A DNA stretch of 62,283 nt, counting the filler, from Basidiobolus ranarum (Eukaryota), in NCBI GenBank assembly GCA_040143965.1. It is 29 parts of 29 records of this genome, joined end to end, with 100 filler letters (N's around TTAATTAATTAA, not from the genome) between each part and the next. Parts side by side here need not be neighbours in the genome. Positions count along the whole stretch, not along the records: positions 28,047 to 30,097 come from JASJQH010003857.1; 28 more parts are not named here. One strand, 5' to 3'. A program made the translations under genes and the position numbers. The notes under the pieces were generated by a model. That model searched no databases and was not told the DNA's origin. It worked only from the letters and a program-made list of their open reading frames with translations. Shown here in pieces: positions 10,291-60,241 of this stretch; the first letter of the stretch is position 1, and the number at the start of each line of letters is the position of its first letter.

Positions 10291-10810
10291 CCTCTATAAT
10301 TTGGCCTAATTTGTTTGTGTGATTTTCTGATGGTATTTCTAGGAAAATTGCAAGACAGACTTATTGGTGAGATAGATCAAGATCTATGGTACTTTCATCT
10401 TAGCCATGGGATGATCTATTTGAATAATGACACATCTACTTGTGGCAGGACATTTGTTAACTACAAGTTGGGGATATTTTGGCTGAATTCTTAATGCAAA
10501 TTTGCCAAAATCCAAGAGCTTGTTCTCTTTGTGAGCAGTAACAAGAGTCAGTGCTATTCAAAATTTCAGATGATTAGCAATTTTTTCATGCTTAATTTGC
10601 TGATAAGCATATTGATGTTGTTACTTTATGTCTCATCAGTCAAGTATGTGCATATGTAGAGACTAAACATAAGGAGATTCTTGTATTTTTTGATTCTCAT
10701 TATGGCTGNNNNNNNNNNNNNNNNNNNNNNNNNNNNNNNNNNNNNNNNNNNNTTAATTAATTAANNNNNNNNNNNNNNNNNNNNNNNNNNNNNNNNNNNN
10801 NNNNNNNNCC

Positions 10811-11554
10811 CGGCGGCTGACCCGGCCGATACCAGCAGACGACGAATCGGGCAACCATCTGGCGGGAATTATCAGAAACGGAGAATATGGCTCTGGGGCC
10901 GGCGATGGCATCTATTTGAATGGCAATACCAGTTACATCTTCCTGACCGTACCTTCTCAAACCTCGGCCAGACAACTGACAGTAAGCTGGTGGATGAAGA
11001 CGTCCAGCAAGTTGGAGGGCAGAATGGCGATGGTGGCGCATACAGACAGCGGCAGAGTATGCGTAACCACACATCTACTCCAAAAGAAAGAATTGTCATT
11101 GAAGGTCAACACATTAATTAGAGGTGATGACTGGGCCTGGAAGAGTGAAGAAAGGCTGCAGGTTAGACCCTCACCCTACGTTATAGACGAAGACTATCAT
11201 CACTATGCTCTTGTCATTGATCAAAGAGAGACAGCACAGAAAAGGGGCGAGCCACCCATCACTCTTTACATGGATGGACGCATTGCTTCCAGTAACTCTG
11301 ATTGGGATTTCCCCAATAAGTTGGGATCAACTCTGCGCGGTGTCTGGTTTGGATCTGTTGAACCACTCAATAGCCACTACCAAAACCCTTGGGACAATAG
11401 CGTCAATCTTGAAGGCCATTATCGTGACATTCGCATATGGGACAAAGGTCTGAGCGCTCGAGATATATTTGAGATGTTTAAAAAATCAAGAACATCAGCA
11501 ATGCGCACAGAGAAGGTTGAGAGCAAAAAGAAAGAGGCTACAAAGATCAAATAA
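10811..11554 (+). CDS. Concanavalin A-like lectin/LamG domain protein, 5' partial
   Basis: Frame is open from the contig edge: DESGNHLAG...GIYLNGNTSYI...TVSWWMK...YHHYALV...LYMDG...GHYRDIRIWDKGLS, typical LamG_3 motifs; CpG-retaining and intact. Confidence 0.8.
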   Translation, partial: RRLTRPIPADDESGNHLAGIIRNGEYGSGAGDGIYLNGNTSYIFLTVPSQTSARQLTVSWWMKTSSKLEGRMAMVAHTDSGRVCVTTHLLQKKELSLKVNTLIRGDDWAWKSEERLQVRPSPYVIDEDYHHYALVIDQRETAQKRGEPPITLYMDGRIASSNSDWDFPNKLGSTLRGVWFGSVEPLNSHYQNPWDNSVNLEGHYRDIRIWDKGLSARDIFEMFKKSRTSAMRTEKVESKKKEATKIK

Positions 11555-13596: not shown

Positions 13597-14850
13597 TGTT
13601 GAAACTAACATTGTCTAAACACCTATATAGTCATATATAGCTTAGTACTTAGTTATCTTATAATTCACTAAGATATTATCCATTATTCTCATCAAGAATT
13701 TACTTAGAATATTTTACCAACTTAGAAGTTCTCAGATATAGAGATTTTTCAAACTTGTGCTAGAAGCCTCAAACTTTGTATACATGTTCCTGAGACCTGC
13801 TTTAAAACATTCTACATGTTAGTTTGCTTATATCTTAACAAAACTACAAATGTCAACTTTCTATTCAATAAATCAATAAGTGAAAACCACCAATTCCTCT
13901 GATTTTCCACACCACTTCCAACAAGCTTCCAAATACTTTAACATACTATGAGCCCCAAGCTTGCACTCTCTGTAATGTCTACTTCTCAAATCTATGGAAC
14001 TTTTCCCTTGTCTGGAAAATTGGATGGAACAAATTTGACCTTAAATTAAGTATTTGACAGACTTCTGGATGAAGATTTATGCAAATTGGGATCCAACTAA
14101 AAGAATAAAGAAAATGCTATAATAGGCTATGGGAGACCTTCCTTTAAAGGTCAAAAGTACTTTGAGAAGAAAAGTAACACAATATGTGATTACTGTAAAA
14201 GAACTGGCCATTTAAGCAAAAATTGCTTTAAAAGAATTACAAAAGAAGAAAAGCATACTGAATTTGTGAATGTGGTAACAACAAAAGATCACTTGTGTAT
14301 ATCTGCTCTATCTATGACTACCAATAAGGAATCCCTGACATGGTATATTGATTCTGGAGCCTCTCTATACCTAAGAAATCTCCTACTCTCAATTTGGCGG
14401 ATATTGGATGCAATCAATTGTTGGAAGTATTCAATCAATCCCAACAAGTATTCAATCAATCACAAAATTCAGGCAATCAGGTCTCAGAAATCCTACTAAG
14501 TGGAAATCAGAAATATCCTGTAAGTGAAACATCTGACCATTCTACCAAGAACTTTGGATGCCTTGAATTAGAGCCCAAAATCAACCGATTCAATTCAGAA
14601 AAAGGGTGGAATATATCTGCACATATAGCATTTTATCAACCAGAAAATTTGACACAAGCTCTGAAATCTGATGAAGCAACAGAATGAAGAAAAGCCACTG
14701 ATGATGAAATTCACTCCCTAATCAAGAATAACACATGGATCCTTGTGGACTTAATTACTGGAAGAAAAACTATTGGTAATAGATGGGTGCTGAAATTGAA
14801 ACTTAACTCAAATGGATCAATCAACTGGTACAAAGCAAGATTAGTAGTAA
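13597..14850 (+). mobile_element. Internally deleted copia element with family C 5' LTR
   Basis: LTR 13597-13942, decayed PBS (CTATGAGCCC), knuckle CDYCKRTGHLSKNC, WYIDSGAS, RT start IGNRWVLKLK...YKARLVV. Confidence 0.85.
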
Positions 14851-15623: not shown

Positions 15624-16690
15624 GATCAATATATCATAGTTACAGTCCTGAATAGCATGCCATATGAGTTTCAGAGCCTAGTAATGGCTCTAGAATCAAG
15701 AACTGAGAATTTGACCTTAAATTATATATTTGGCAGACTTCTGGATGATGATTTATGCAAATTAGGATCCAACCAAAAGAATGAAGAAAATGCTTAAATA
15801 GGCTATGGGAAACCTTCCTATAAAGGTCAAAAGCACTGTAGGAAGAAAAGTAACACATTCTGTGATTACTGTCAAAGAACTGGCCATTTAAGTAAAGATT
15901 GCTTTAAAAGAATTGCAGAAGAAGAAAAACATACTGAGTCTGGAAATGTGGTTGCAACAGAAGATCACTTGTTCATATTTGCTCTATTGATGACTACCAA
16001 CAAGGATTCTCAGACATGGCATATTGATTCTGGAGCCTCCCAACATTTCGCAAATGTAAAACATTGGCTTGTGAATTATGAAAAAATCTCAAGTAGAACA
16101 GTTTTCATGGGAGATGACTGCTTATTGGATGATATTGGAATGGGAACAATTCAAGTCAATTTCACTGGAGCTTCTGAAAAGAAAGTGTATACTTTTAAGA
16201 ATGTATTACAAGTTCCAGATATTGCCAAGAATTTAATATCTGTATGAAAGGCCACCTAAGAAGGGCTAAAATTCAGTTTTGATAGGTCAGGATATACCAT
16301 CACTGATCAAAATGTGAACTATTCAGCTTTGCAAGAAAAGGATCAGTACTTGTGCAAACTTACATATAATCCAAGATGTTTATATGTGAATATAAGTTAT
16401 TCCAGTCAAGAAACTATTGAATTATGGCATAAGTGAAGTAGCTATATTGGATTTGAATATTTGAGCAAATGATAAAAAATTGCCTAATTTCAGGAATTCA
16501 AATGAACCTCTCAACCAAAATGAAAATTTGCAAGGGTGGTATATATGGAAAACAAGCCAGGCAACCATTAAGAGCTCTGGTTTAATCAAATCTGTCAAAA
16601 AATTGGATCTAATTCTTTTAGATTTGTGTGGACCTATGCAAATTTATCTTTAGGTGGAAAAAGATATTTATTCACATTTATTGATGATTA

Positions 16691-19434: not shown

Positions 19435-20965
19435 TTTGTTGCTGTTATTGTGATCAAACAATGCAAAAACCTGTGAGCACATTGAAAAGAGCCCTTTGTC
19501 AAACAGTTAATAACTCTGGAGCCTCTTCAACCCATTGATTACCAACTCACTTATTTTGCTAATACATTGTTAATCAGATTAGCATATGGTAATAGTGACA
19601 ATTTCACCCGGAGGATCATTTCACTGATTGTGAGCTCCATTGGGAACTCCCAGAATGTAAAGCAAGGGCCTATAAGCTCTAAGTAATGTGAAGAATGCAG
19701 CAGGGAATGTATTGAATACCAGCATAGATTAACTCTATCTTCTTTAAACCTGTAACTCAGTTTTCATATCCAATTCCAACATCTTTACACAGTCACTGAG
19801 TCTGCCAAGATCTGCCAATGTGAGTTGATGCTGTAAGAAGATATTAACATATCAACAAACACCTCCCAATGTTGCCAATACATATCTGGAAAAATCTTCT
19901 CATGGCTCCACTTGAATATATACAAATCCAGTACTTCCAGTCTTTGCATTTGAATGAATGCCCAGATGAGTAGATATTGATGGGAATCCTGGTAAAATAT
20001 GATGGTATCTTCACATTTTCAAGCATTTTCCCAATTGATTCAAACTTTGATCCTATCTCAATTGGCTCATTCATGCTGGATTTTCCACTATATAGCTGAG
20101 TAAGAAGTTTTGAAATGTTGTTGATTAGTAAGTGCCCAGAGCCTAATGGGAAGCTCTGGCTCCAGCTGATCCTCTTTAACAACACAATCTTAGGCTTATG
20201 GCTAATACCAAGTTAATGTTAGACTGACTATTTGGTGAATTGATATCAGTGATCATGTGGAAATCTGACCAGGCCCTTGATGGTAAAATCATGGAGTTTA
20301 GTGTTGTATATGATAGTAATAAGTCATATGCCTGTCAAAGTAAACTCCATGGATTTGACAAAATCTACAGCAAGATAGTGCATGGTGCCGATGCAAACCT
20401 CCAAGTTTACTGATGGCAGGAGTGTTACCAATGCATACAATGATTTAAGATTTAGTCAAATATTCACCCATCTGAACACCATTAGATAGCTTTTTAAATT
20501 CCATAATTAAAGGCTGCAAGAAGCAATCCATAAGCACTGGTGATTTAGGTCCTGATATGATCAATAGTATCAACATATCATGACTGTTATACCAATCAGA
20601 AGGAGCAAGATTTAAGTTGATTAAATTTATTGGCCAGCAAGCCTTTCTAACTGTGTATAGGGGCAGTGACAAACCAGCCAGAGCCAATGCAAATGCATGA
20701 TCATATGTGTTCTCAAACAAACCTTGACTTCTCAGCTTCTGGTAGTGATATTCATCAAAAATATCAGTAATACCATCAGCCTTATGATGAGTACTTTGGT
20801 ATAGGATCAATGATCTATATTTGGGTGATGGGAAATTAATGGTATATAAGCCAAATTTGAACAATATATACATGCTTCAGTGATTCCCAATTGTGCAAGA
20901 ACAGTACATGACTGTAGGTTTTTCAGATCACCAGAGAAAGCCAAACAACCATTTGGACATACAGA
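19435..20965 (-). mobile_element. CACTA/EnSpm (Transposase_21-like) transposase pseudogene
   Basis: DIFDEYHYQKL...CWPINLINLNLAPS...ISGPKSPVLMDCFLQPLIMEF; FKCKDWKYW; GPCFTFWEFPME. Confidence 0.88.
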
Positions 20966-23741: not shown

Positions 23742-25794
23742 ATTCCAGAACTTGATCTCCAGTTCCTCTCTTATACCTGAATATTTGCTTTACTGCAGTT
23801 TTGCGGTCAGATCCTGCATTTGTGAGATATTTGCCAACAGTTGACACTGCCACAGCAATGTCTGGACATGTTCCAACCATTTGATACATCAACTATGCTC
23901 CATGAGTTAATAAGAGAACTCCTAGCTTTGATTTGGTTCATTTTGGGCCAAATTAGATAAAATGTTGATTAATTTCACATTGGGTTCCATTGGTGTTAAT
24001 ACAGGCTTGTGATTCTACATGTGAAAGTGCTTTAGGATGTTAAGGATACATCTAGACTGTTTCATCATAATTTCCCAATTGGGTTTCTCTCACTTGCTTT
24101 GGATTCAAAGAAAATAACAACATTTACTCAAAGAAGTCATCTGAAATTGATTTGATATGATGCTTTTTGTCTGATTAAGTGATTCTAGATCATTTGTAGC
24201 CATGATCACATCATCCACATGTAGTGTCAAGCTAATGATCCTATTTCATGTTGTTATGATGAAAATACTGTGATCTGCTGTGCAATTTTGGAATGCTAGT
24301 TTTTCCAAATAGGTATCTATCTAGTTGTGCCATGACCTGGGTACTTGCTTGTGTCCTAATAGTGTCTTTTGCAGCTTACAGACCATATCAGGTGTTTTGG
24401 CTTAACCAATCTATCTGGTTGCTCCATATAGATCTCTTCTAGAAGTCCATTCAGAAAGAGTGTTTTTACATACATTTGATATATATCAAGGTTATGGACA
24501 GCTGAGAGTGACAGTAATCATTTAATAGAGCTAAACTTAGCTACAGGAGCAAAAGTATCAATCAGATCAACTCCTGGAGCCTGGTAATAACTTCTTGCAA
24601 CTGATCATGCTTCGTGACTTTCTATAGTTCCATGAGCTTGGTTTTAATCTTTGTAGACACATTTACAACCAATTGACTTTGTTGTTGATAGTACATGACT
24701 TAAAACCCGAGTTTTGTTGTTCTGAAGTGAGGAAAACCAATTGAAATTGCTTTCTCCCATACTTTTGTTGCTGGACACTCCAGGGCTTGATCTTGAGTCT
24801 GTGGCTTGTCACCAAAAGCTGCATAAGTTTATACATCATCATTGGAAGTGTTCCACCAGTTGTAAGGGTTATTCCCCCTACCAGATGATCTCTTTGGTAC
24901 TAAATCATCCTCTAATGTAGTTAGGGCCAATATTTTGGTTCACTGGGGCTCAGATACTGCTTTAGTGTTGTCAGGCACTTTGTGAATAGCACTCATTGTG
25001 TTGTGTAGATCAAGAAATATGATCTGATGTGAAAATTTTGCTTTTCCCCTAAAAATCACATCTCTACATATGATCAACTTCCAGTTCTCTACATCTAATA
25101 GTCTATAGGCCTTAAATACTGCAAAGTAACCAAGATATATGCATTTTATGCTTTTGGGTTTCAATCTGGAGTGTTTTTGAGCTGGAAGTAGGCCATGTAC
25201 TGTGTAACCAAAGATCCCAATATGATCTACATTTGGTTTTGATCTATATAGGGCTTCATATGGAGTTGAATTTTGTAGCAATCTTATTAGGCATTAGTTT
25301 TTGATTTCAACTGTAGCAGATACAGATTCAACCCAATATTGGTAAACTATCTTTTGATCATGTAACATTGATCTTGCTATCTCCAATAGGTTCCTATTAG
25401 CATGTTCTGCAACTCCATTTTGCTCTGTAATATAAGGTACAAGGTACATCAGTTTCTTGCTTAATTCCATTTTTATGAAAAAAACTAACAAAGTCTCTAG
25501 AGCAGTATTATGCCCCATTATTACTTCTTAGTATCCTTTTTTTTGTGGTGGTTCTCTTTACTGTTGCATTATGGTACTTCAATCTAGCTAATGCTTCAGA
25601 CTTGGATTTAAGAGAGAATATCTAAGTAAATCTTGTTTTGTCATCAATAAGGTGATAAAGTGCCTTTTGACACACAGTGACATGTTTTTCATTGGCCACA
25701 TAGGTCAAAATGAAGCAGGGAAATATTCTGAGTGGATTCAATTACTCCAAAGCTTGCAAACAGCCTTCTGTGATGCTTTCAACATAGGTAAACT
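23742..25794 (-). mobile_element. Copia integrase-RT, degenerate
   Basis: EQNGVAEHANRNL, TPYEALY, KCIYLGY, TFAPVAK, PDIAVAVS. Confidence 0.92.
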
Positions 25795-28270
25795 NNNNNN
25801 NNNNNNNNNNNNNNNNNNNNNNNNNNNNNNNNNNNNNNTTAATTAATTAANNNNNNNNNNNNNNNNNNNNNNNNNNNNNNNNNNNNNNNNNNNNATAAGG
25901 AGCTGTTTGGCAAGGACTCAAGGCAGAGATAATGCAGTGGTAAGAACTGCTTGCAAACTATAAAATATATGATGTAAAAAGTTAATGGGTTTGAAGCCAC
26001 TGAAATATACTCTATCCAGTGATAACACTGGCTGGCATTGAACAGAAGATAGGATACTAGGTACCTGATGGTATGGGATGCACCAAAGAGAGAGTTTAAG
26101 CAGCAAAAACACTGCTGCCAAATAACAGAAGATATGGTGTTAGGTGAACAAGTATGCAGGAGATACCCAATGGATCACCTAATGTTTCCTAAAGATCACT
26201 GATAGGTGTTGAAAGGTATGATCACAAAAAAGAATGATTTGGGAAATATTTGCATGAGAATCTTTTCAATAGGAAAAGTACTACTGTGAAGCATGTTTGG
26301 TATGATGCTTAGTAATTGTAGGTATATGACTAGCTAAAAATAGATTGTATTCAGTGCCAAATACCCCCAGGATGAGCCATTGGTATGCAGCCAAGAAACA
26401 TTGATTATTGCAAACTTTAAAAGCAGAGACTCAAAAGTCATGAAGTAAGGTAAAAAATGATAGGGCTATGCTTTCAATATGCAGTTTGTGAGTCTAATAT
26501 GGTTATTCATCTCAATATAAAATTTGGTACATTCACCATTAGGGAAGTCAATACAGATATGTTCTCAATAGTTGTGTAAGCAACATAAAGAAAGCAACAG
26601 TTGCTAATTAGTCCAGAGTTGATCATTAGTTCTTAGTAGATCCTCTATGTGAAGCTTTTACATTATTTTGGGCAAGGGGTGAAACTCCAATTAGCAGTGG
26701 TAAACCAGAACCTGATGGATTTTGCTTTGTTGACAATACTAATATGTAACCTGTAAACACTTGGAGGAGAGTTGCTTGAGAGTTGTTCAGGGTATGTGGA
26801 CAAGAAACAATTAGTATGTAAGATGCTTGAAATGCAATATTAAATTTTAAAATTGTTAGGCATAGTAGTTAGCTAATTCATATACTGTTTAGATTGTACT
26901 GAGTTTTCACACTCTACATGAGTGTTTATTTTTCTAATTAATAGATATGGTAATGAGATCATCTCAACTAACTTTCACCATAGGAATACATCCTCCTGAT
27001 ATAATCTTGAAGGTTCATAAATGGTTTATATATTGGAATATACTTAGGTAGTTAATGAGATTGCTATTTTTGTTAGTATTAATGCTCATCACAGCTTATT
27101 AGAAGGATCAACCAATCACCAAGATCTTAACTGGTGCTATACTTAGGTATGATTTCAACATATGTCTTAGGAAGTGATGAGTCATTATTTTGAGTCTCAG
27201 CCGCAGTTGCTTTGTGCTGTATGAACTGGTGATCAGATGATGGGTCATCTGCTCATCAGCCCATCTGTTCACTGGATGAAAGAATATTAGTATATACAGG
27301 GCTTCTCACACCTTTAGAGCAAATATTTTATCCACAGTAAAATTCCATTACTACACTATCATTCCATTACCACTGTTCATCCACCCTTATCCAATATTAA
27401 AGGTATGATTGTTATTATCTAAATTCATCTATTAATCTTATTTCCTATTAAACCATAGGTTAGTGATGTTCAGTGGAATGAATTTAAAGTCTGTGATTCA
27501 AGATTCTAATTCATGCCCAAAAACTCACAAGCTCCAAACAGTTTTATCTTTACCTTGAAAATAATATACTTTCAGAGAAAACATGTATACTGAAATGAAG
27601 ATTTACGTGCTGATATGTGACATTGCCAAACTTCTTGATAAATGATAGACCTGAAGTTAGAATATAAGATAGAAGATAATTGCAGAAGCACTTCAGAAGT
27701 ACCTAAGAACAGAGTTAAGTAAGACCTGAAAACTACCTGCCAAAGCCAAAGTAGGTGATGCTATGAAGCCTCCAGTGTGGCAATCACTTAATACAAAGTC
27801 TTTGAAGTGTAAAGCATCACTGGTGAGAAATGAGAGGTATAATACCAAGGAGCAATCAATATGGGTGATACATAATGCAAAGTCAACAAATGAGAAAGAC
27901 TAATCAACAACTACATTTGCTACAAATTGTGCAGATAGGGAACAACNNNNNNNNNNNNNNNNNNNNNNNNNNNNNNNNNNNNNNNNNNNNTTAATTAATT
28001 AANNNNNNNNNNNNNNNNNNNNNNNNNNNNNNNNNNNNNNNNNNNNAGTTCTTACCTCATCATTCAGATTATGTAAAATAGCATCTTTAGGTAGTTTGGT
28101 ATGTCTTAGATTAGATATCCCAGATCAGACGATCAACAAGTATGTCGAGAAAATTATAGTTTGTAATAGGGATATGCGATCATGTAAAACTTGACGCGTT
28201 GATCATTCATGCATAACACATCTCCAAAACCATTCCTCGATCGTGGATATCGAGATTTAGGATGTGTGCA

Positions 28271-28300
28271 GGTGCGGGTGCGGGTGTGAGTATATTTATT
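28271..28300 (+). promoter_or_regulatory. Putative TATA-like box with upstream GGTGCG repeat
   Basis: GGTGCGGGTGCGGGTGTGAG then TATATTTATT (28291-28300), about 150 nt before the ATG and followed by a pyrimidine-rich leader. Confidence 0.45.
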
Positions 28301-28449
28301 CAGCCCTTCTCACTCAAGCATCCGACAACTACTACCTTTTCTTTATCCTACGGTTAGAACTCACTTGACTCTGTTGACCCTCTTGTACAAGCCATTTTCA
28401 CCAACCACACTTGTCATTAACCACTGCGCTTATTGACCATTCTACCACC

Positions 28450-29604
28450 ATGGAACACCTTCAGGAAAGAGTAAGCCATTATTTTGAAACTCGAACTGAG
28501 GGTGGAAACGGAATCTTTAGAGATTACATCCACGCCGAGAGCTCGTCAGTGAAGATCTTTGTGTTTGATAATGACTACTTTAACATTTCAAACCACAAAC
28601 ATGCCATAGACAGTCAAATCCATGACTTGCAGCAGTATTCTAATGACTTGATTGCTTCATCTGCCTATATGTCTGAAGATAATGTACATGCTCAGTTGGA
28701 GGCTGATTTTGCCTCTCATTTCGGGAAAGAATGCGTGCTAACACAATCAGGCTACGCTGCGAATACTGGACTAATACAGGCCATATGCTCACATGAAACA
28801 CATGTGTATATTGACAAGCTCACTCATGCGTCATTTTGGGATGGTCTTTACTCCAGAGGCACTCAAACTCATGTCTTTGCACATAATGACATGGTGGATC
28901 TGGAAAACAAAATCATCAAACACGGCCCAGGCATAATAATCGTTGATAGCTTGTACAGTGGCCATGGCTCATTTTCTCCAATCAAAGCCCTGGTTCAACT
29001 CAAGTTAAAGCACAAATGTATCCTTGTTGTCGATGAATCACATACACTGGGAGTGTACAGCAAGACTGGCCTCGTGGACTTGATGGGATATAACGAGACT
29101 GTTGACTATATAACAGCTAGTCTAGCAAAGGCATATTGCACAAGGGCTGGGGTTATCATGGGTCCACACTCACAATTTATCAAAGAGAAGTCCATGCATT
29201 ATGTGTTTAGTTCTGCTCTCATGAGAAACGACATTATCAAACTACGTGCAATGTTTGAAGTCATCAAAGGAGCAGATCAGAAGAGGAATAGATTAATGCG
29301 AGCATCCAACGCGTTAAGAAAGGCTCTGTTGAAAATTGTAGATGTCGAAGACACTCCAATACCATCACCAATTATATGCATTCCTACTAAATCCGAGGCT
29401 GAGATGGTAAAACTTCACCATCATTTTGTATCCAAAGGGATATTTGCGGCACCATTTTTCTTTCCCGCAACACCCAGAAAATCACCTAACCTGAGAGTGA
29501 CACTTCACTCTGAGATTACAGTAAACGATATACGAACCATTACAAACGCAACCGCTTCTTTTTTTCAGCGTTCAAATTCTGTTGTATTCTCTTCCAAACT
29601 TTAA
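28450..29604 (+). CDS. CqsA/LqsA-like PLP-dependent acyl-CoA aminotransferase (alpha-oxoamine synthase family), 384 aa, with C-terminal PTS1 -SKL
   Basis: Motifs NDYF, QSGYAANTGLIQAIC, VYIDKLTHASFWDG, FAHND, HGPGIIIVDSLYS, VDESHTLG, TASLAK (PLP Lys), RAG, FSSAL, PAT follow V. cholerae CqsA as I recall it; ATG in ACCACCATGG context (the ORF track TTG start is unlikely); no introns. Confidence 0.88.
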   Translation: MEHLQERVSHYFETRTEGGNGIFRDYIHAESSSVKIFVFDNDYFNISNHKHAIDSQIHDLQQYSNDLIASSAYMSEDNVHAQLEADFASHFGKECVLTQSGYAANTGLIQAICSHETHVYIDKLTHASFWDGLYSRGTQTHVFAHNDMVDLENKIIKHGPGIIIVDSLYSGHGSFSPIKALVQLKLKHKCILVVDESHTLGVYSKTGLVDLMGYNETVDYITASLAKAYCTRAGVIMGPHSQFIKEKSMHYVFSSALMRNDIIKLRAMFEVIKGADQKRNRLMRASNALRKALLKIVDVEDTPIPSPIICIPTKSEAEMVKLHHHFVSKGIFAAPFFFPATPRKSPNLRVTLHSEITVNDIRTITNATASFFQRSNSVVFSSKL

Positions 29605-30197
29605 GTCTAACATTTACCTTATCCTCTATAACCTACCCAAAGCTATATAAATCACAATAGCGAAGATTTGTTCACTTACCAGTTATGTAATCTGAATTTA
29701 AACTGAATTAGTTACAATTGAGGGGATTTGGTGTGAGATTCACTGTATCACCCTGCTAATAATCTACTAGTTGGCATACGAACTATTCTTCTTTTATTAG
29801 CGTTCAACTTGGGAAGCGGGCTGTACTTCTACCACAGCATATATACTTTAAATGCCCTTTTAGACTTGCGGTTACAAAACATATTTGGATTGGAGATGAG
29901 GAAAATATTTTGACACTTGGCATTACCTGGTTATTTATCACATTAATATGGGTGTAGAAGATACATCCTTTTATTCATCGTTTTTTATAGTTGAGATATT
30001 TCCAAGATCCTGCTGTGGCTTAGTTAAAGAACTTAAGTGGATCCTTGAAAAACTCTTTGCTTGCAATTTCAAGCTTTTGGTATGCTTCTGAAGCTCTNNN
30101 NNNNNNNNNNNNNNNNNNNNNNNNNNNNNNNNNNNNNNNNNTTAATTAATTAANNNNNNNNNNNNNNNNNNNNNNNNNNNNNNNNNNNNNNNNNNNN

Positions 30198-30974
30198 AGC
30201 ACTGTTGAAAGAACGGGTACGAACATTGAACAATATTTCATTGATACCACCGAATTGGTAGGAGTAGAACCAGTTGGAGGAGATAAACAATGGGAGGAGT
30301 AGCAACATATTCTTGCTTGTGAAGAGCTTGAGTATACCAACGATTTCGCCGCCGACATTCTTGAATTTGACTACCTCAACACGAGATCCATCATTACGAA
30401 CAACCTTCTCAGGAGGAACAATACCCAGGCCAAGAAGGGCGCCGATGATCATAAGAACTATGAGGACATAGTATGTGGCAGTACTGACGCTACCCTTGTC
30501 AGAGGAAAAGTTGAAACTGAAAGGAATGAACGAGCCAAGGATGGAACCCATATTGAAGATGATACAGAAAATACCAACAGCACGACCTTTCTGATTTTCA
30601 GATGGATAGGACATCATCACAGTACCTTGTGCAGTCCAAAAGATACCAGCTCCAATACCGAGAATAGCACTCGCAATGATAACGAAGGTTGGTTTCTTGG
30701 TACTGCTGTAGTATACGAGGGAGCCAGAGTAAAGAGCGTATGTAAGGCCACCGCAGACCATGGTCAAACGAGCGCCTAGAATATTGAAGCTAGCACCACC
30801 GAATATACTGAAAATAGCGAAACAAGCATAAAGAGAAAGGTTAGCATTTTTAGCGGTGCTGTCATCCATCTGACCACCAGCACCGAGAGCGGTAATAACG
30901 TTAAACATACCCGGGCAGCAGAGACAAACAAAGCTCACCAGGATAACCTGAACCATTGAGGAGTTAAGTCGCAT
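30198..30974 (-). CDS. UNC-93-like MFS membrane protein, 3' partial
   Basis: QVILVSFVCLCCPGMFN, GAGG, GIGAGIFWTAQG, MSYPSENQKGRA, SNWFYSYQF; first ATG at 30974. Confidence 0.92.
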
Positions 30975-31920
30975 CACGGTAATAAAGCTTGATGTAAGAG
31001 AAGAAAACCAGTTCAAGAAATCTAGGAGTAGAGCGAATTTGACTGAGAACCTTGCTTATTATTTTGTGTGGAATTTTGTGATGGGGGTTTGAGTATACTG
31101 AATTTTCTAGCTATTAAAGAAGAGCAGTTGTATGAAGTGGAAAAAACTCCCCATTTCGAAGTTGTGAGGATATTTATAGTAGCTACTTGTCTTTGGTATA
31201 TTATGTTACTATTATATACTAATTGACAATGAATAATGATGTTTTGTAGAACTCAGATGAACTTGTGTTACAATTATCAGCGACCATATGATATCTCTGG
31301 CAAATTGGAGATGATTTTGTACACTTTGTAATGGAGACGGTTGAAAACAACTTCCCGTAATCGGTTTCAGAATTGCCCTGACTGAACTACAGATGCATAT
31401 TTGCGTTAACGCGTCTGGTGCCAGGCCAATATTTAGTATTGTTCTTAGACAGAGCATTTTAGAAGGATGGTACAGAACGAATTCGAACCATAAATTTGAA
31501 CCTACTTACATAAACCTGATTCAATAGATGATTATCGTCCTTCCCGTCACAGCAGAGTTTCCCCATCCGATGAGAATCCGAAAACCAGACATAAGTGTGA
31601 CTTTGATCAAACAGTGGCCACTGTAATTGGTTGAGATCTTCCGCAATGAATGATGAATATATATTAATGCAATAAACCAAATGAATATGCGTTCAGCTTT
31701 AATATATTGAGCAAGATCAATCAATACTGTGGGGACCAACTGTAGCAATAGAAACGATTATATTAAATCCTTCAGTCGGAGTTGATATCATTTATTAATA
31801 GTTAAGATATTATGATTTACAGATTTAATAAGCAAATCCGTTGATGATCACGATATATTCAAAATCAGGCAACAATAGAGTTACAGAGCACTGCTCGTAA
31901 AACGGGTACTAAAATAGGCT

Positions 31921-32247
31921 TTAAGCTTCGACAACACTCTTCTCATGTTCAACTTCAGAAGTATCCTTAACACCTTTAGCAACAATGAAGGAGAAAGGAA
32001 GAGAAGCAGTCAACAATACCCAGTTAATAATGAATTGGGTCATCAATGGGTTGCGCTTGGCATCAATATCCCAGGCGATGGCTGCACCAGCTGATTGAAC
32101 TCCCTTGTAAAATCCAGCATAACGGGCAAGAACATGCGAGTCGTTGGATAGGGCACCCATCAACCAGTAGGCATATGTTTGCAAAACGGCATCACAGAGA
32201 CCATAGGATAAGAATAAGACAACGAGAGGTCCGTAACCAGGACCATT
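31921..32247 (-). CDS. UNC-93-like MFS protein C-terminus (upstream tandem paralog), 5' partial
   Basis: YGLCDAVLQTYAYWLMGALSND...ARYAGFYKGVQSAGAAIAW. Confidence 0.9.
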   Translation of the reverse strand, partial: NGPGYGPLVVLFLSYGLCDAVLQTYAYWLMGALSNDSHVLARYAGFYKGVQSAGAAIAWDIDAKRNPLMTQFIINWVLLTASLPFSFIVAKGVKDTSEVEHEKSVVEA

Positions 32248-32348
32248 GNNNNNNNNNNNNNNNNNNNNNNNNNNNNNNNNNNNNNNNNNNNNTTAATTAA
32301 TTAANNNNNNNNNNNNNNNNNNNNNNNNNNNNNNNNNNNNNNNNNNNN

Positions 32349-34398
32349 CATCTATGAAGCCAATATCCACTGATATTATTGTTGATGAGCAGAAACCAAC
32401 AAAACCATGGTTCATCAGCTCTCACCAAATACCAAGCCTTTGCTGATGTCATTGACAAGAAGCAATCTGATATACTCCCAGCTCACCACCCATATGATTG
32501 CCCTATAGATCTACAGCAAGGAAAACAAATACCATTTGACCTATATATGGGCTGACCCAGACAGAGCTCAACATTCTGAAGGAGTACATTGCAGAATAAC
32601 TAGAGAAAGGATTCACCCACCGTTCAAAGTCCCCAGCAGGCTCTCCAATCTTATTTGTTAAGAAAAAAGATGGATCCCTCTGTCTCTGTGTAGATTACCA
32701 AGGCCTAAATAGCATTACAGTCAAAAATTGGTACCCCTTGCCATTAATCAACTCACTCTTGGATCCGCTTGCTTCAGCCAAGGTGTTTACAAAGATTGAT
32801 CTAGGAGGTGCTTACAATCTTGTAAGAATCAAACCGGGAGACCAATGAAAAACTGCCTTACAAACTTGCTATGGACACTTTGAATACAAAGTCATGCCAT
32901 TTGGACTTAACAATGCCCCTGCAGTTTTTCAATGCATGATGAATGACATCTTGAGAGAGTATCTTGATCAGTTTGTGGTAATCTATCTTGACGCTATTTT
33001 GGTCTTCTCAAGCTCTCAAGAAGAACATGATATTCATGTTTCCAAAGCCCAAGAAAAGTTGAAAACCTCTGGGCTCTATGCTAAACTTGAGAAATGTGAA
33101 TTTGATCAAGCTCAAGTTGAATTCCTTGGATATAATATCAGCACATCAGGCATCTCCATGGACCCTAAGAAGGTTGAATCTGTTTTGTCTTGGGATATTC
33201 CCAAGAATGTGAAGGATGTCCAATCTTTCCTTGGATTTGCAAACTTTTACCGATGGTTTGTCAAGAACTACTCCAAAATATCTGCTCCATTAACAAACCT
33301 CACAAAGAAAGAACTCCCATTTGACTGGAACCAATCTTGCCAACAAGCATTTGTAACTTTAAAGAGTGCTTTTACCTCAGCACTAATCCTGGTGCATCCC
33401 AAACTAGACAAACCATTTATTGTTGAAACTGATGCATCAAACCTTGCTCTAGGAGCAGTGCTTTCACAGTTTGATGATGACAACTTACTGCACCCTGTTG
33501 CCTTTTACTTGAGAAAATTCTCTGCTGCAGAAATCAACCATGACATCTATGACAAGGAACTATAAGCAATCATTGCAACATTTGACCAATGGCAACAGTA
33601 CTTGAATGGAGCAAATCACAAAATCAAAGTTTATTGTGATCACAAGATTCTTCACTATTTTAGTACAACCAAAGTTCTCAACCATTGTCAAGTAAGATGG
33701 TCATTATTTCTTGCCAGTTTTGATTTTGTGATTACATATTGATCTGGTAGCCAGCAAGGAAAACCTGATGCCTTATCACATAGAGCAGAATATCAGCCAA
33801 AAGAAGGGGATGAGGCCTTTGGCCAACAAAATACTTCCTTACTGAAGCCCCACCAACTTCAAATTAGTTCAACTGCCCTTTCTCTACCTAGTTCAAGCAC
33901 ATTCCATGTAGATATCCACAAACCTCAATCTGAAGACCCATGTGTAATATCAATCAAGAAAGCCCAGGAAACACCCAAAGACCTCCCAAGCTTGAACTTG
34001 TACTGCCATTTCTCTATCATCAATGATCTCTTGTTTTATACAAAGCACCTTTATATTCCAGACCACACTTCTAGCCTCAAAATCATGCAGGAAAGACATG
34101 ACTCACCACTAGCTGGACACTTTGGTGTTGCCAAATCATATATGTTTGCATCCAGGGATTATTGGTGGCACAAAATGTTTGGATTTGTTAAGACTTATGT
34201 TTCCACCTGTGATACTTGTACTCAAGTGAAGACTCTAAGACATCAGCCCTATGGCCTCCTACAGCTACTTCCAATTCATGATCAGCGGTGGAAATCCATA
34301 TCCCTGGATTTCATAACTGATTTACCCATGTCTGCCAAATATGATTCAATTCTGGTAATTGTTGACCATCTAACAAAGATGGCCCACTTTGTGCCCTG
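32349..34398 (+). mobile_element. Ty3/gypsy pol (RT-RNase H-integrase), degenerate
   Basis: [22 protein letters not shown] (mutated YLDD), ETDAS, YDKEL, HDSPLAGHFG, ISLDFITDLP. Confidence 0.95.
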
Positions 34399-34697
34399 NN
34401 NNNNNNNNNNNNNNNNNNNNNNNNNNNNNNNNNNNNNNNNNNTTAATTAATTAANNNNNNNNNNNNNNNNNNNNNNNNNNNNNNNNNNNNNNNNNNNNTG
34501 TTTCACCTTGCAATATCTATACAACCCCCATGTATTCCTTGATCAGACCTCATTCTGATCAACACCAGTTTTCAATAAAGTTTCTTGCCTAAGTATCTTC
34601 CCTCTCCAGTATTGTCTTGTGGTCTACACCCAAGTACTCTCCTGCCTTCTAGCCTCTTGTCATTGTTTCCGGTCCTTGTCCAGTTACTTGTGTGACA

Positions 34698-36430
34698 AGG
34701 AAAGCACTCTCTACACTTTGTTTACATCTTAGAGACTCTTAATTGAGGTGCTTACACTCAGCTAAAACCATGCAAACTGCTTGGGAAGCACTTGAGTGAC
34801 TTGGTGAGACTAAAAGTCTGGCTGACAGGCTCTATCTTAAGCCGAATTGTTCTCTATCATGGTGATCCCATTGCAAAATATTTAAATGGGATAAAGCTAT
34901 GGCAGATCAGCTCTCATCCTTTTGAGCACCTCTAAATGAATATGACTTTGTCATGGCACTGCTTAGGAGCCTGCCAGAGAAGTTTGGGAACCTCATAATT
35001 GTCCTAGGGCTCATTGACCTGTATCTGCTCTATTGGTACCCACTAAGGAAGACTCAGAAATATGGAGCATTGAATCAGGAGCTTCCCAGCATATGTCATA
35101 CAAGAAAGATTGGTTTAACAGCTTAAAACCCATCCTAACAAGGAAAGTCTACTCAGGTGATGACTAAGCACTGGATGCAGTTGGTGAGAGCACATTTGTG
35201 CTCAATTTTGACCTAAATTCATTGGCACCATGAGCAAAATTGGATGATATACTCTATGTATCAAATATAGCCAAGAATCTACTCTCAGTAAGCCAAGGAG
35301 CAACTCAAGGACTAAATTTTGAGATCTGCAAGGCTGGATCTACTATCACAGATCAGTATAATACCAAATTAGCTACTGGGATCAAAACTCAAAATTTGTA
35401 CAAGCTAGGAATCAACTAATTGCATTCTGATTAGGTAAACTTGGCTAAAACTGGTGAAATAAGCTGTCAAATGTTACATCAAAGATTAGGCCACATTGGG
35501 AGTAAAGCTGACCTATGTTATCCAAACTCAGCTTGCTTAGGCTTGGAAAGTGAAAATGTCACCAAATTGGATCTGTGTGAAAGTTGTATATGTAGAAAAC
35601 ATCACAGAAAGCTGTTTTCAATCCTTAGGGATATTAAATCCACTCAGAATGTGGCCTGGATTCATTCCAATCTTTGTAGGAAAATGAAATTGTCTTGCTA
35701 TGTTGAAGAGCTACTTATGACTTTAATTAATGACATAGCAAGAAATACTTGTTTATTCTTTCTCAGAGCAAAAACTGAAATTGTAGCTATGTTCAAGCAC
35801 TACAAAGCAGTGGTAGGGACTAAAACAGTACAAAAATAAGGGTACCAAGGAGTGATATTGGTTGAGAATACTGCTCTAAAGACTTTGCTAGTTTTTGCTT
35901 CAAACATGGAATAAAGCAACAAGCTATTGTTCCTTATACTCCTTAGTAAAATGGAGTTGCAGAACATGCTAACACAACTATAGTGCAGATTGCAAGATCC
36001 ATTTTGCATGAACAAAAGTTAGATTACCAATATTGGGCTGAATCTGTCTCAACTGCAGTCTACATCAAAACAGATGCCCAACAAGATTTCTATGAATTTC
36101 TATTCCATTTGAAGCCCTGTATGGATCAAAACCAAGTGTGTATCATCTCAGGAACTTTCGTTGCACAGCATATTGCTTTTTTCCAGCTCAAAAACATTCT
36201 AAATTGGAATTCAAAAGCAGAAGATGTATAAATCTTGGTGACTTTGACAGTATCATAGAGTCTGTAGGCTTTAGTTTGAGTACAATAACCCTAGAAATAT
36301 GCATTTCTTACTTTTTGGATCAAATTTAGAACAATTTTTGGTCATAATTTTGACATAAGCAATGCATCCAAAGATCGTCAAATGTTTTACATCAGGTTGA
36401 ACTCCAAACCAAGCTTGATATGGTGTAGAG
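34698..36430 (+). mobile_element. Copia gag-integrase, degenerate
   Basis: HQRLGH, CESCICRKHHR, NGVAEH, YWAESVSTAVY. Confidence 0.88.
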
Positions 36431-43584: not shown

Positions 43585-44862
43585 TGGATGGTTTTTCACT
43601 AAACAAATATACAGTTGGAAAGGCTTACTGGCCAATAAAATTAATTACCTTAAATCATTCTCCTTCTGAAAGGTATAAGAGTCATAATATTTTGATACTA
43701 TCCATCCTATCTGGACCTGAATCACCAGTGCTAATAGATAGCTTCTTGGAGCCTTTGATTGCCAAATTTGAATGGTTACCCAATGGGGTTTAGATGGGTG
43801 AATATTTTATTAAAGCTGATATCAGTGTATATATTGGTGGCACTCCTGCCATCAGTAAACTTGGAGGTTTTTGTGGGCACAATTTACTATCTTGCTGTAG
43901 ATTTTGTCAAATCAAAGGAGTTTACTCTACCCAGCATATGCATTACTACTATCTAAAAACAAAACTAAACTTTATAATTTTACCATCAGGAGCCTGGAAA
44001 GATTTCAACATGATCACTGATATCAATTTGGCAAATGGTGAGTTTTACATCAAACTTGGTTTTAGCCATAAGCCTAAGATTATATTGCTGAAGGGGATCA
44101 GCTGGAGCCAGAGCTTCCTATTAGGCATTATGCACTTAGTATTCAACAACATTCTGATACTACTTACTCAGCTATATAGTGGAAAATTCAATACAAATGA
44201 GCCATTTAAGATATGATCAAAGTTTGAATTGATTGGGAAAATGTTTGAAAATGTTAAGACACCATCATATTTTACCAGGACTCCCATCAATATCCACTCA
44301 TCTAGGTGTTTATTCAAATGCAAAGACTAGAAGTATTGGATTTGTATTTATTCAAGTGGAGTTTTGAAAAGATTTCTGCCTGATAAGTATTGGCACCATT
44401 GGGAGTTGTTTGTTTATATTTTTAATATATCCTTATGGCATCAACTCACATTGTCAGATCTCAGGCAGATACAGCAACTGTGCAAAGATTTTGTAATTGG
44501 AAATGAAAAACTTTATTACAGTTTTAAAGAAGATAACCTGAATCTATGCTGGTATTCAATACATTCCCTGCGGCATCTTTTACAATGCTTAGAGATTATA
44601 GGCCCTTGCTATACATTCTGGGAGTTCCCAATGGAGTGCACCTGTGGTGAAATGATGCTCTGTGTGAAATTGTTGGTATTACCATATGCTAATCTGATTA
44701 ACAATGTATCTGCAAAATCAGTGATGGATGTAATGCAATAGGCTAAGGAGACTCCAGAGTACATTAACCTTCTAACAAAGGGCTCTTTTCAATGTGCTCA
44801 CAGGTTTTTGCATTGTTTGATCACAATAACAGCAACAAAGCCCAATCCATGGACATAGAATA
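43585..44862 (+). mobile_element. CACTA/EnSpm transposase core remnant
   Basis: DGF...WPIKLITLN...SGPESP...FLEPL; TPAISKLGGFCGHN...CRFC; IMHLVFNN; HSLRHL...GPCYTFWEFPME. Confidence 0.9.
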
Positions 44863-48687: not shown

Positions 48688-49521
48688 GACTCAACTGAAG
48701 CAATTATACTAACGCTCACATTTATTTGAAGGGGATTGATTTGAATGGATTTTAGTTATTCAATCCAACCAAAATTTAGGAATCTCTCCAATTTCTTGGT
48801 TCTTGTACATTCCAGAATGTGAATTTGATGTTAAATATTTTACGCATCACCATTTACCAAAGTAACGAGAATGGTTTTGTGTGATTGGATCAATTATATT
48901 GACTGTTAGTATCGCTAGTTAAATAATTGTTGATTGGATATGAGGCAACGAAGTTGTATCAAATAAAATTTAAAGTATAAAAAAGATGTTATTGCTACGC
49001 TGTCCGTAATCTCCTATAGAATGAGATTTAAAGCTTGTGTTGCTAACAGGTTTGAATGTATATTTGCCCTACACAATCAAAGAAAATAGTGCTGATGACA
49101 CCTCTGTTTAATAAAGGAATTTCGAGTTAAGTTGAGCAATATTTATGCCATAGTGCAAATTAGTAATACATTCTGTCAATATCTCTAATTGATTTGTTAA
49201 GGATGTACATGATTTTCTACTGAGATATCCTTACTTTGAGAGTATGAAGGCGTGTTGCTAAGCTATAGATTCGCAATGTTACTTTTACTATATAGAGCTT
49301 AGAAACAAACATATTTGTTGGATAATTAATCTTTATTCAACATCATAGTTAACTTTAGTTATGATACATATATCAGAAACAGAAAGCAACGTATCTATAG
49401 CCCCTATATTCTAAATAGGAANNNNNNNNNNNNNNNNNNNNNNNNNNNNNNNNNNNNNNNNNNNNTTAATTAATTAANNNNNNNNNNNNNNNNNNNNNNN
49501 NNNNNNNNNNNNNNNNNNNNN

Positions 49522-60141: not shown

Positions 60142-60241
60142 NNNNNNNNNNNNNNNNNNNNNNNNNNNNNNNNNNNNNNNNNNNNTTAATTAATTAANNN
60201 NNNNNNNNNNNNNNNNNNNNNNNNNNNNNNNNNNNNNNNNN

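Follow-up and report, generated by a model that had tools for sequence, protein, structure and literature searches.

Is a gene that resembles the bacterial synthases of quorum-sensing autoinducers a native part of the genome of the fungus Basidiobolus ranarum, and if so, what might it do there? The alpha-hydroxyketone signals CAI-1 and LAI-1 are regarded as a means of communication among bacteria only (PMC3376566), and our literature search found no paper on eukaryotic CqsA/LqsA homologues; a look-up by term in studies of horizontal gene transfer to early-diverging fungal lineages gave no mention, although their supplements might list the gene. The window, that is the whole stretch of DNA analysed (62,283 nucleotides), consists of 29 unlinked contigs of ~2 kb each with N44-TTAATTAATTAA-N44 linkers between them. 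A fungal host, supposed in an earlier note on this DNA, is borne out by an UNC-93 protein on a neighbouring contig, which is 100% identical to a named B. ranarum protein, itself encoded on a contig of 2051 bp; elsewhere among the contigs of the window lie retroelements of the gypsy and copia kinds as well as a TAF5 domain.

The open reading frame and its contig

The reading frame (Table 1) is intact and intronless, as described before, running on the plus strand from ATG 28450 to TAA 29602-29604 without a single internal stop and encoding 384 amino acids; the translation contains all the motifs on which the earlier note had relied, namely QSGYAANTGLIQAIC, VYIDKLTHASFWDG, HGPGIIIVDSLYS, VDESH, TASLAKAYCTRAG and FFPAT. 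TTG 28411, a formal start by bacterial rules only, was considered and rejected because the starts of the fungal relatives align with ATG 28450. No Shine-Dalgarno-like purine run precedes this ATG when the 5' flank is read directly, and sigma-70-like sites in this flank are not in excess (6, against a mean of 6.1 in shuffles). The nearest terminator-like site on the plus strand begins at 29950, 345 nt past the stop codon; a TATATAAAT stretch lying about 50 nt past the stop is noted descriptively. Neither flank contains a cqsS/lqsS/lqsR-like frame, the longest stop-to-stop frame being at most 64 aa, in agreement with the earlier reading, an absence which carries little weight because the contig comprises just 2051 bp. 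The composition of this contig is typical of the assembly: its GC content is 39.5% (range over the 29 contigs 32.3-40.4%) and its trinucleotide profile correlates with that of the other 28 at r 0.956, rank 15 of 29 counted from lowest to highest.

Table 1. Features of the CqsA-like locus of B. ranarum (positions along the window)
Feature	Position	Strand	Evidence or remark
Contig with the CqsA-like gene alone	28047..30097	.	2051 bp, N44-TTAATTAATTAA-N44 linker at each side
5' flank, non-coding, 403 bp	28047..28449	+	ACCATGG start context; sequence read ttctaccaccATGg
CDS, CqsA-lineage PLP-dependent alpha-oxoamine synthase (by sequence and model), 384 aa + TAA	28450..29604	+	profiles, structures, tree
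QSGYAAN (Q99-N105), CqsA-lineage signature	28744..28764	+	Q99, S100, G101 and N105 invariant in alignments A1 and A2
VDESH (V194-H198), putative catalytic Asp195 and His198, lineage-specific Ser197	29029..29043	+	D195, E196, S197 and H198 invariant
Lys227 codon, putative PLP Schiff-base lysine (TASLAK)	29128..29130	+	aligned with CqsA Lys236; invariant in A1 and A2
Ser-Lys-Leu C-terminus, canonical PTS1 import signal (predicted)	29593..29601	+	sequence; clade enrichment
3' flank, non-coding, 493 bp, GC 34.9%	29605..30097	+	frame scan, composition

Family, lineage and fold

The assignment of the protein to a CqsA/LqsA-like type, rather than to BioF, Kbl, ALAS or SPT, which had been read from motifs, is upheld by profiles, PDB match, Foldseek, tree and signature columns, ALAS and SPT having been compared through HMM and PDB scores only. 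Besides Pfam PF00155 (82.3 bits against a gathering cut-off of 19.7, E 5e-23), the protein matches the autoinducer synthase family NF005526 of NCBIfam with 324 bits (E 1e-96), the best-scoring family by 128 bits, the competing profiles reaching 196 (BioF), 155 (SPT), 146 (Kbl) and 128 bits (ALAS). As this score lies under the equivalog cut-off of NF005526 (428 bits), it gives no warrant for assigning the protein the function of CqsA; the BioF cut-off (TIGR00858, 426 bits) is not reached either. Two alignments of relatives were used, A1 with 15 and A2 with 27 sequences, and for all 27 members of A2 it was again NF005526 which gave the best family E-value (1e-133 vs 5.7e-65 for bioF).

K227 as the PLP lysine, H126, D195 and H198 as the putative catalytic residues and R349 as the arginine expected to bind the carboxylate show no variation in either alignment; A104 does not vary in A1 and hardly varies in A2. 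General roles of the His, Asp and Arg residues in alpha-oxoamine synthases (AOS) have been described (PMC6148460), and Lys236 of CqsA has been named as the PLP-binding lysine (PMC3376566). Judging by these intact residues, the product is a catalytically complete PLP-dependent AOS of the CqsA/LqsA lineage. We further defined a lineage signature of 17 columns, whose residue is shared by 85% or more of 60 bacterial rows of CqsA type and occurs in no more than 20% of 14 rows of BioF/Kbl type. The query matches 14 of them, including Q99, Y120, S197 (in DESH), T222 and S224 (in TASLAK), R232, F336 and A340/T341 (in PAT), the three exceptions being conservative (A125T, F220Y, F229Y), and it keeps 26 of the 32 columns conserved family-wide. 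Gln at position 99 is found in 93% of the bacterial CqsA-type and 100% of the eukaryote-type rows, the outgroup having Asn, while position 197 is Ala in 93% of the outgroup rows.

In comparison with the PDB, the best sequence match is V. cholerae CqsA (191 bits; next ALAS, 110 bits), whose chain aligns at residues 9-373 end to end with residues 3-364 of the query, leaving the latter without an N-terminal extension. The AF2 model (pLDDT 93.4) retrieves CqsA chains as the top six Foldseek hits (TM 0.86-0.91; next family Kbl, 0.85), with TM 0.91 and an rmsd of ~2 A to 3hqt and 2wk9. The V. cholerae enzyme (2wk7/2wk8/2wk9, 3hqt; the CAI-1 synthase) thus has the same fold at 31-32% identity and shares with the query QSGxxAN, DESH, TASLAK..RAG and F..PAT, with K227 corresponding to K236. 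Unlike it, the query is eukaryotic, ends in -SKL and has no adjacent cqsS visible, and the bacterial C-terminal tail W-x-S-x-x-R seen in alignment A1 is missing.

Relatives and origin of the gene

Maximum-likelihood trees were computed carefully for 61 rows and quickly for 113 (support given as UFBoot/SH-aLRT). With E. coli K-12 BioF standing in for fungal BioF, and without the characterised V. cholerae CqsA and L. pneumophila LqsA, the careful tree separates a CqsA-type clade of 55 rows from E. coli BioF and JGI BioF/Kbl rows at 100/100; the same split has an SH-aLRT of 100 in the quick tree. Within the CqsA type, the query belongs to a eukaryote-type clade of 26 rows (96/85), in which fungal rows from three phyla stand beside those of bdelloid rotifers, and within this to a fungal clade of 12 rows (100/99), where it is sister (94/89) to rows of Umbelopsis, Mortierella, Gongronella and Ascomycota; Neoconidiobolus, together with two further rows, branches off next outside them (99/95). 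The branching order of the eukaryote-type clade is in rough agreement with the species tree of the fungi.

The closest relatives come from fungi (45-51% identity), and so do the top named matches (42-59% over aligned parts). Umbelopsis isabellina KAG2183788.1, Mortierella alpina KAF9958336.1, Gongronella butleri, Neoconidiobolus thromboides KAI9292565.1, Orbilia brochopaga and Aspergillus cavernicola (41-51% to the query) have proteins of similar length ending in -AKL, -SKL, -ARL or the non-canonical -NKL, which are annotated just as PLP-dependent transferase or hypothetical protein and on which our literature search found no study. The Basidiobolus protein forms a separate deep branch among them, none being closer than 51%. 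The Gongronella and Orbilia relatives lie on contigs of 1.15 and 2.67 Mb, and a U. isabellina protein on a 1.68-Mb contig falls in the same 90% cluster as P0002. Homologues of the bdelloids Adineta vaga and A. ricciae belong to the same eukaryote-type clade at 37-39% identity to the query, but reach 448-473 aa, carrying a long extension at the N-terminus as well as an insert within the chain, and end in -LKH, -LKY or -KHS without a PTS1; extension and termini together suggest that they may reside in a different location from the query.

The gene is sparse. Fourteen named fungal species are represented among the matches, only four of them of Aspergillus, and Mucor, Rhizopus and Penicillium are not found among the named fungal relatives. 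Likewise, no B. meristosporus protein occurs among the 123 matches, its proteome being in the database searched; the gene is hence no general feature of Basidiobolus. A metagenome scan with the eukaryote-clade alignment, covering 80 of 285 relatives, returned no fungal-type contig with flanks; all were bacterial-type and 32-38% identical except L086, on which the Adineta-like protein P0031 is encoded. In the ESM Atlas, as a lead only, the nearest large clusters are bacterial autoinducer synthases and no eukaryotic cluster has 50 members or more. Fused forms were also met (MMPL-AOS, fatty-acid-hydroxylase-AOS and a double AOS), none of them close to the query. We considered taking an entire wider clade of 38 rows as eukaryotic and rejected this, P0124 (L001) being probably bacterial: its contig, of 2.6 kb and 32.5% GC, has GGAGGAG ahead of the start codon and, 114 bp downstream, another ORF, and it belongs to a 2.1-Mb MAG, other sampled contigs of which match in GC.

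Bacterial CqsA/LqsA-type synthases (NF005526) share the 100/100 lineage with the query at 32-40% identity, and 40% is also the ceiling among 357 relatives from 185,579 bacterial species genomes. Five of seven bacterial loci examined have a histidine kinase or response regulator within ~2.5 kb (the loci named being those of Paraburkholderia xenovorans, Nitrococcus mobilis and Legionella maioricensis), in agreement with the lqsA-lqsS clusters described (PMC3376566), whereas on its short contig the fungal gene is the only one.

As worded in the earlier note, the proposal of a horizontally acquired gene is not supported: the eukaryote-type clade (96/85) and the fungal identities of 45-51%, vs at most 40% for bacteria, show that it did not enter this fungus alone. 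Since fungi and rotifers form this clade and the fungal relatives are closer than any bacterium, any transfer from bacteria, the presumed direction, must be old. The idea that the fungus recently took over a working CAI-1/LAI-1 synthase from gut bacteria and uses it to mimic or jam their quorum sensing could appeal to the otherwise bacterial family, to the intronless gene and to the 2-5% of bacterial-origin genes reported for Basidiobolus, which lives among gut bacteria (PMC10964425). We nevertheless consider it very improbable: the identities just given and the nesting of the query within the fungal clade (100/99) speak against it, as do the PTS1 and the Kozak-type start, which indicate a long residence in eukaryotes, and a cognate sensor kinase is not seen on the contig, although this contig is too short to judge. 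Contamination of the B. ranarum assembly, be it by a bacterium or by another eukaryote, is suggested by the small size of the contig and its lack of a host gene, but would leave unexplained why no close match exists among the bacterial genomes just mentioned (at most 40%) or among named organisms (at most 51%), the composition being mid-range for the assembly, the start context and PTS1 eukaryotic, the flanks non-coding over 400-500 bp and the tree place, between Neoconidiobolus and Mucoromycota, one that suits a zoopagomycete; of the explanations considered here we give it the least credence. With fungal nearest relatives, some on megabase contigs, and bacteria at most 40% identical, the gene is, by sequence comparison, neither a recent bacterial import nor a contaminant.

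The C-terminus and the peroxisome

The -SKL at the C-terminus of the protein had not been remarked on in the earlier note. PTS1 import signals belong to the consensus class (S/A/C)-(K/R/H)-(L/M). Of the 38 rows of the wider eukaryote-type clade, 16 carry a strict [SAC][KRH][LM] terminus, vs none of 61 other CqsA-type rows and none of the 14 rows of the outgroup (Fisher p 2e-9); among the 22 clade rows without a PTS1 some are partial gene models, but the seven rotifer-group rows have genuinely different ends. P0124, on its bacterial-looking contig, ends in -SRL, a member of the PTS1 class, so such a terminus can arise outside eukaryotes. In the AF2 model of the query the residues 379-384 have a pLDDT below 50, the tail thus being modelled as flexible and exposed. 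The -SKL end points to a peroxisomal metabolic setting. A precedent is offered by the BioF of fungi and plants, also an AOS, which is imported by a PTS1 and uses peroxisomal acyl-CoA (PMC3713238).

Proposed function and its alternatives

We think it fairly probable that the protein is a native, anciently acquired and peroxisome-targeted enzyme, condensing acyl-CoAs from beta-oxidation with an amino donor. The gene would then be a native nuclear gene of B. ranarum and a member of an old, sparsely retained eukaryotic branch of the otherwise bacterial CqsA/LqsA lineage, ranging over Zoopagomycota, Mucoromycota and Ascomycota as well as bdelloid rotifers, in which the bacterial C-terminal tail would have been lost and a PTS1 (-SKL, -AKL or -ARL) gained. 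Folded in the cytosol as a PLP enzyme, presumably a dimer by analogy with the family, the protein would be imported into peroxisomes by Pex5 via its -SKL. There, Lys227-PLP may form an external aldimine with SAM or (S)-2-aminobutyrate, as in CqsA, or with another small amino acid, and a Claisen-type condensation with a medium-chain acyl-CoA from peroxisomal beta-oxidation would release an alpha-aminoketone or enaminone, convertible to a diketone or alpha-hydroxyketone. CqsA itself joins SAM or (S)-2-aminobutyrate to C8-C12 acyl-CoA, yielding the precursors of CAI-1 and LAI-1 (PMC3376566).

The fungal and plant BioF just mentioned, which shares superfamily and logic with the query, being a PTS1-bearing AOS where beta-oxidation supplies acyl-CoA (PMC3713238), raises the question whether the protein is simply the biotin enzyme of the fungus, a peroxisomal KAPA synthase using pimeloyl-CoA and alanine. 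The functional PTS1 of such enzymes (PMC3713238) and the rank of BioF as second-best HMM (196 bits) would fit, yet this score is far under the BioF cut-off, E. coli BioF, the stand-in for this comparison, is set apart at 100/100 in the tree, and 14 of 17 CqsA-specific residues lacking in BioF/Kbl rows are kept. BioF moreover is widespread in fungi, whereas the CqsA-like gene is rare and patchy (14 named species), and in A. fumigatus its protein is strain-variable, the BioF XP_747713.1 (PMC3713238) not being among the four accessions; we therefore hold this identity to be quite unlikely. Somewhat easier to entertain, though still unlikely, is a cytosolic or decaying relic, in which the -SKL goes unused or the gene is silent and without a current role. 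The sparse retention among fungi and several short or partial relatives of 264-336 aa (P0018, P0019, P0021, P0025, P0026) would agree with decay; the full-length frame of the query, its complete set of catalytic residues, the family-wide columns retained and the confident AF2 model would not, and the recurrence of the PTS1 across deep branches argues for selection on the terminus.

Implications

A coherent, evidently old eukaryote-type branch of the family, repeatedly furnished with a predicted peroxisomal import signal, emerges from tree and termini taken together. Beyond the peroxisomal enzyme favoured above, one may imagine that fungi, and secondarily bdelloid rotifers, keep domesticated alpha-hydroxyketone autoinducer synthases, run in peroxisomes on intermediates of beta-oxidation, and that Basidiobolus, together with certain soil fungi, nematode trappers and insect pathogens, releases C11-C15 aminoketones or hydroxyketones resembling CAI-1/LAI-1, which might be perceived by the releasing fungus or, through receptors of the CqsS/LqsS type, by bacteria in its surroundings; we regard this as a speculative and rather doubtful proposition. 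The idea of cross-kingdom mimicry becomes concretely testable, and this in a culturable fungus living among gut bacteria. If such a release were true, it would reveal a eukaryotic producer side of a signal class so far known only in bacteria. Even if the product were no quorum-sensing signal, the enzyme would be a second AOS, after BioF, wired to peroxisomal beta-oxidation, and the fungal CqsA-like enzyme a candidate source of new aminoketone or hydroxyketone lipids.

Assignment to the CqsA lineage

The 384-residue protein predicted from Basidiobolus ranarum belongs to the CqsA lineage, but does not reach the level of an equivalog, so that the earlier note, which had proposed a bacterial-type autoinducer synthase of the CqsA/LqsA type, was right about the family at the level of lineage only. 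In Pfam it falls into PF00155. Its best NCBIfam model is NF005526 (alpha-hydroxyketone-type quorum-sensing autoinducer synthase) with 324 bits, against 196 for BioF, 155 for serine palmitoyltransferase, 146 for Kbl and 128 for ALAS; the curated cut-off of NF005526, however, is 428 bits, and by NCBI's standard the protein is therefore not an equivalog. Among solved structures, Vibrio cholerae CqsA is the best match by sequence (191 bits, residues 3-364 against 9-373 of the chain) and ALAS the second (110 bits). The structure was modelled with AlphaFold2 from an alignment of 27 relatives (mean pLDDT 93.4), and in a Foldseek search with this model CqsA chains occupied ranks 1-6 (TM 0.86-0.91, rmsd about 2 Å), with Kbl next (TM 0.85).

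All motifs on which the original proposal was based are present in the translation, and the argument also held numerically: the protein keeps 14 of 17 signature columns, which were chosen for conservation of 85% or more among 60 bacterial CqsA-type rows and for a presence of no more than 20% among 14 rows of the BioF/Kbl type. Most of the 17 are kept at 70-100% in the eukaryote-type rows, i.e. the fungal and bdelloid rotifer branch of the family. Lys227 pairs in the alignment with Lys236 of CqsA, described as the PLP lysine (PMC3376566), and His126, Asp195, His198, Lys227 and Arg349 do not vary in either alignment made.

Locus and host

The window consists of 29 separate contigs (2042-2063 bp each, in size order, with N44-TTAATTAATTAA-N44 linkers), which are unlinked, and adjoining genes therefore are not genome neighbours. 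No frame above 64 aa is found in the flanks of the CqsA-like gene (403 and 493 bp), a contig of approximately 2 kb being too short to judge a sensor neighbour. The start codon lies in the context ACCATGG, with no purine-rich Shine-Dalgarno stretch ahead of it. A TTG at 28411 is a formal start only and was rejected, because fungal relatives begin at the position of the ATG.

The assembly is that of B. ranarum, and the CqsA-like contig probably belongs to this fungus. A fungal host genome, as previously presumed, is supported by the UNC-93/MFS frame on the adjoining contig (30198-31016), which is 100% identical to a named B. ranarum protein encoded on a 2051-bp contig and has paralogues of 64-78% identity in B. 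meristosporus, and the indirect evidence on the owner of the gene (this neighbour-contig protein, the retroelements and composition) is consistent. The CqsA-like contig has a GC content of 39.5% (range over the assembly contigs in the window 32.3-40.4%), the open reading frame a GC3 of 0.40 (other frames 0.28-0.49), and the trinucleotide profile correlates with the other 28 contigs at r 0.956 (rank 15 of 29); low-GC bacterial loci gave 0.84-0.90 in the same test, values that the lowest-scoring contigs of the assembly also reach, which renders the trinucleotide evidence weak. Given its separate coding pieces, the UNC-93/MFS gene probably contains at least one intron; at least ten paralogues (50-78% identity) in B. 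meristosporus indicate an expanded family. Another contig of the window carries a TFIID NTD2 fragment.

Features of the window
Feature	Position	Strand	Remarks
CqsA-like contig	28047-30097	.	Sole long frame is the CqsA-like ORF
CqsA-like ORF	28450-29604	+	ATG 28450, TAA 29602-29604, 384 aa
UNC-93/MFS transporter gene	30198-31016 and 31921-32248 (contig 30198-32248)	-	Two or more coding pieces
Ty3/gypsy reverse transcriptase/RNase H frame and second, integrase-like frame	within 32849-34450	+	Integrase assignment of the second frame putative
Ty3/gypsy chromodomain piece, chromovirus type	49474-50100	+	On another contig than the preceding piece
Copia-type Gag/integrase/RT-like frames	14101-14499, 15798-16247, 24940-25293, 35435-35839, 60186-60632		Spread over different contigs; CCHC knuckle, 'YIDSGAS' protease-like motif; first two clearly related copies
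Similar coding repeat, unannotated, on two contigs, probably a DNA-transposon-like family	19844-20876; 43794-44741	-; +	'KDWKYWICIYSSG...' and 'SHKPKI(V/I)LLK(R/G)ISWSQSF'
Laminin_G_3/concanavalin-A-like lectin domain frame	10757-11554	+	E 1.4e-07

Relatives and phylogeny

A word-indexed search among 5.8 billion proteins yielded 123 hits, the best named relatives being fungal: Mortierella spp., Gongronella butleri (on a 1.15-Mb contig), Orbilia brochopaga (on a 2.67-Mb contig), Conoideocrella, four Aspergillus species, Podila and Dactylellina. These are followed by bdelloid rotifers (Adineta, 36-39% identity), below which rank bacterial proteins (31-39%) that bear the name CAI-1 or alpha-hydroxyketone autoinducer synthase. 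A Umbelopsis isabellina protein (1.68-Mb contig) shares the 90% cluster of the best hit (51% identity to the Basidiobolus protein), and cluster look-ups added relatives from Mortierella alpina and Neoconidiobolus thromboides. Scanning one genome per species in 185,579 prokaryote species for the pattern gave 357 relatives, of which 80 were kept (33-40% identity), and an exhaustive search of representatives gave 118 proteins at E <=1e-30.

Four Adineta members (P0027, P0030, P0036, P0043) are extended at the N-terminus by about 50-100 residues; they also contain an internal insert and lack a C-terminal peroxisomal import signal (PTS1). The related locus L086 matches residues 2-373 in a single unbroken block, so that this copy is intronless too. 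Fused forms in bacterial and other records (P0133, P0184, P0122) join an alpha-oxoamine synthase (AOS) to an MMPL transporter (1195 aa), a fatty-acid hydroxylase (655 aa) or a second AOS (802 aa), and two loci of alphaproteobacterial MAGs (L022, L045) contain long CqsA-like frames (561-1212 aa). The A. fumigatus member (P0025) comprises 264 aa and is recorded under four strain accessions only; it therefore seems to be an accessory, possibly decaying gene there.

A quick tree was made from 113 rows picked from 258 proteins, part of which were left out, and 16 locus ORFs (330-520 aa, duplicates removed). It separates CqsA-type from BioF/Kbl-type rows (SH-aLRT 100), with all named eukaryotes in one 38-row clade (SH-aLRT 100). 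In a careful tree (61 rows, 406 columns; bootstrap not fully settled, correlation 0.984), 55 CqsA-type rows part from six outgroup rows, E. coli K-12 BioF from the annotated bio operon included (UFBoot/SH-aLRT 100/100), and all eukaryote rows fall into a clade of 30 (100/100). This comprises 26 eukaryote-type rows (96/85) and their nearest non-eukaryotic kin, P0124, P0022, P0024 and P0128 (93/81). Within the fungal group (15 rows, 99/95), a subgroup of 12 (100/99) holds the Basidiobolus protein as sister (94/89) to Umbelopsis, Mortierella and Gongronella, then Ascomycota rows; the sister of this subgroup is Neoconidiobolus with two further rows.

The branching order is similar to that of the fungal species tree, and we therefore regard the gene as an old one in this kingdom that was lost many times; fungus-to-fungus transfers may have contributed. 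The bacterial rows around the clade (Proteobacteria, Actinomycetota, Bacteroidota, Spirochaetota, Myxococcota) form a poorly resolved base, and a bacterial origin of the eukaryotic branch would be the economical reading, with no donor nameable. Acquisition of a bacterial gene by this fungus, as the earlier note had it, agrees with the CqsA lineage and the fungal host, but not with the nesting of the protein in an old eukaryotic branch; the claim should be changed to membership in a eukaryotic branch of this family that is old, patchy in distribution and peroxisome-tagged.

The best match from a bacterial genome, P0124 (L001, 212-1468), ends in -SRL, a PTS1-type tripeptide. Its contig (2624 bp, GC 32.5%) was considered as misbinned eukaryotic DNA, an explanation dropped in view of GGAGGAG a few bases ahead of the start, a Na+/H+ exchanger ORF 114 bp downstream and the matching GC of the source, a gammaproteobacterial MAG (2.1 Mb, GC about 33%; two other contigs 33-35%). 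P0124 is probably truly bacterial, and its -SRL may be chance, or hint that genes passed, in either direction, between a eukaryote and a bacterium associated with it.

The peroxisomal signal and the BioF alternative

The Basidiobolus protein ends in Ser-Lys-Leu; the last six residues of its model have pLDDT <50, and no N-terminal extension relative to CqsA is present. Strict [SAC][KRH][LM] ends occur in 19 of the 258 proteins. Within the 113-row tree they are confined to the eukaryote-holding clade (16 of 38 rows, i.e. 15 of 33 eukaryote-type rows plus P0124), with none among 61 other CqsA-type and 14 outgroup rows (Fisher p 2e-9). Of the 15 fungal rows of the careful tree, nine end in a strict PTS1 and another two in -NKL; the remaining rows include partial models. 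Bacterial CqsA-type proteins have a conserved C-terminal tail W-x-S-x-x-R, whereas eukaryote-type rows lack this tail.

A precedent exists in BioF, a related AOS with PTS1 in fungi and plants: according to PMC3713238, the signal is required there for import and biotin synthesis, and the acyl-CoA is thought to derive from peroxisomal beta-oxidation. Could the protein simply be fungal BioF? We think not, since its score is far below the BioF cut-off, CqsA-specific residues are retained, E. coli BioF is placed in the outgroup apart from the CqsA-type rows, and the gene is rare among fungi; moreover, none of the four A. fumigatus accessions is the BioF accession listed in PMC3713238. The alternative keeps some weight, because E. 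coli K-12 BioF stood in for the fungal enzyme in the tree.

Proposed chemistry and meaning

CqsA is described as using SAM and, less efficiently, (S)-2-aminobutyrate together with decanoyl- or octanoyl-CoA, its enaminone/aminoketone product being hydrolysed and reduced to CAI-1 (PMC3376566). The Basidiobolus enzyme would by homology catalyse a PLP-dependent Claisen condensation of the same class, which -SKL would place in peroxisomes, where medium-chain acyl-CoAs arise; amino donor, chain length, product and any biological role are matters that we infer. Bacterial synthase genes are usually neighbours of the gene for their sensor: five of seven bacterial loci examined have a histidine kinase or response regulator within about 2.5 kb. 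A signalling role of the fungal protein is hypothetical.

In the literature on CqsA/LqsA, autoinducer synthase and CAI-1 in fungi, Basidiobolus and bdelloids, no report of eukaryotic homologues was found, and the papers examined on horizontal transfer into early-diverging fungi do not contain 'autoinducer', 'quorum' or 'aminotransferase' in their main texts, though supplements may list the gene. Public records label the fungal relatives 'PLP-dependent transferase' or 'hypothetical'; the automatic JGI label of some metagenomic relatives is 'CAI-1 autoinducer synthase'. There are reports that LAI-1 acts on eukaryotic cells, and this would raise the interest of a eukaryotic producer.
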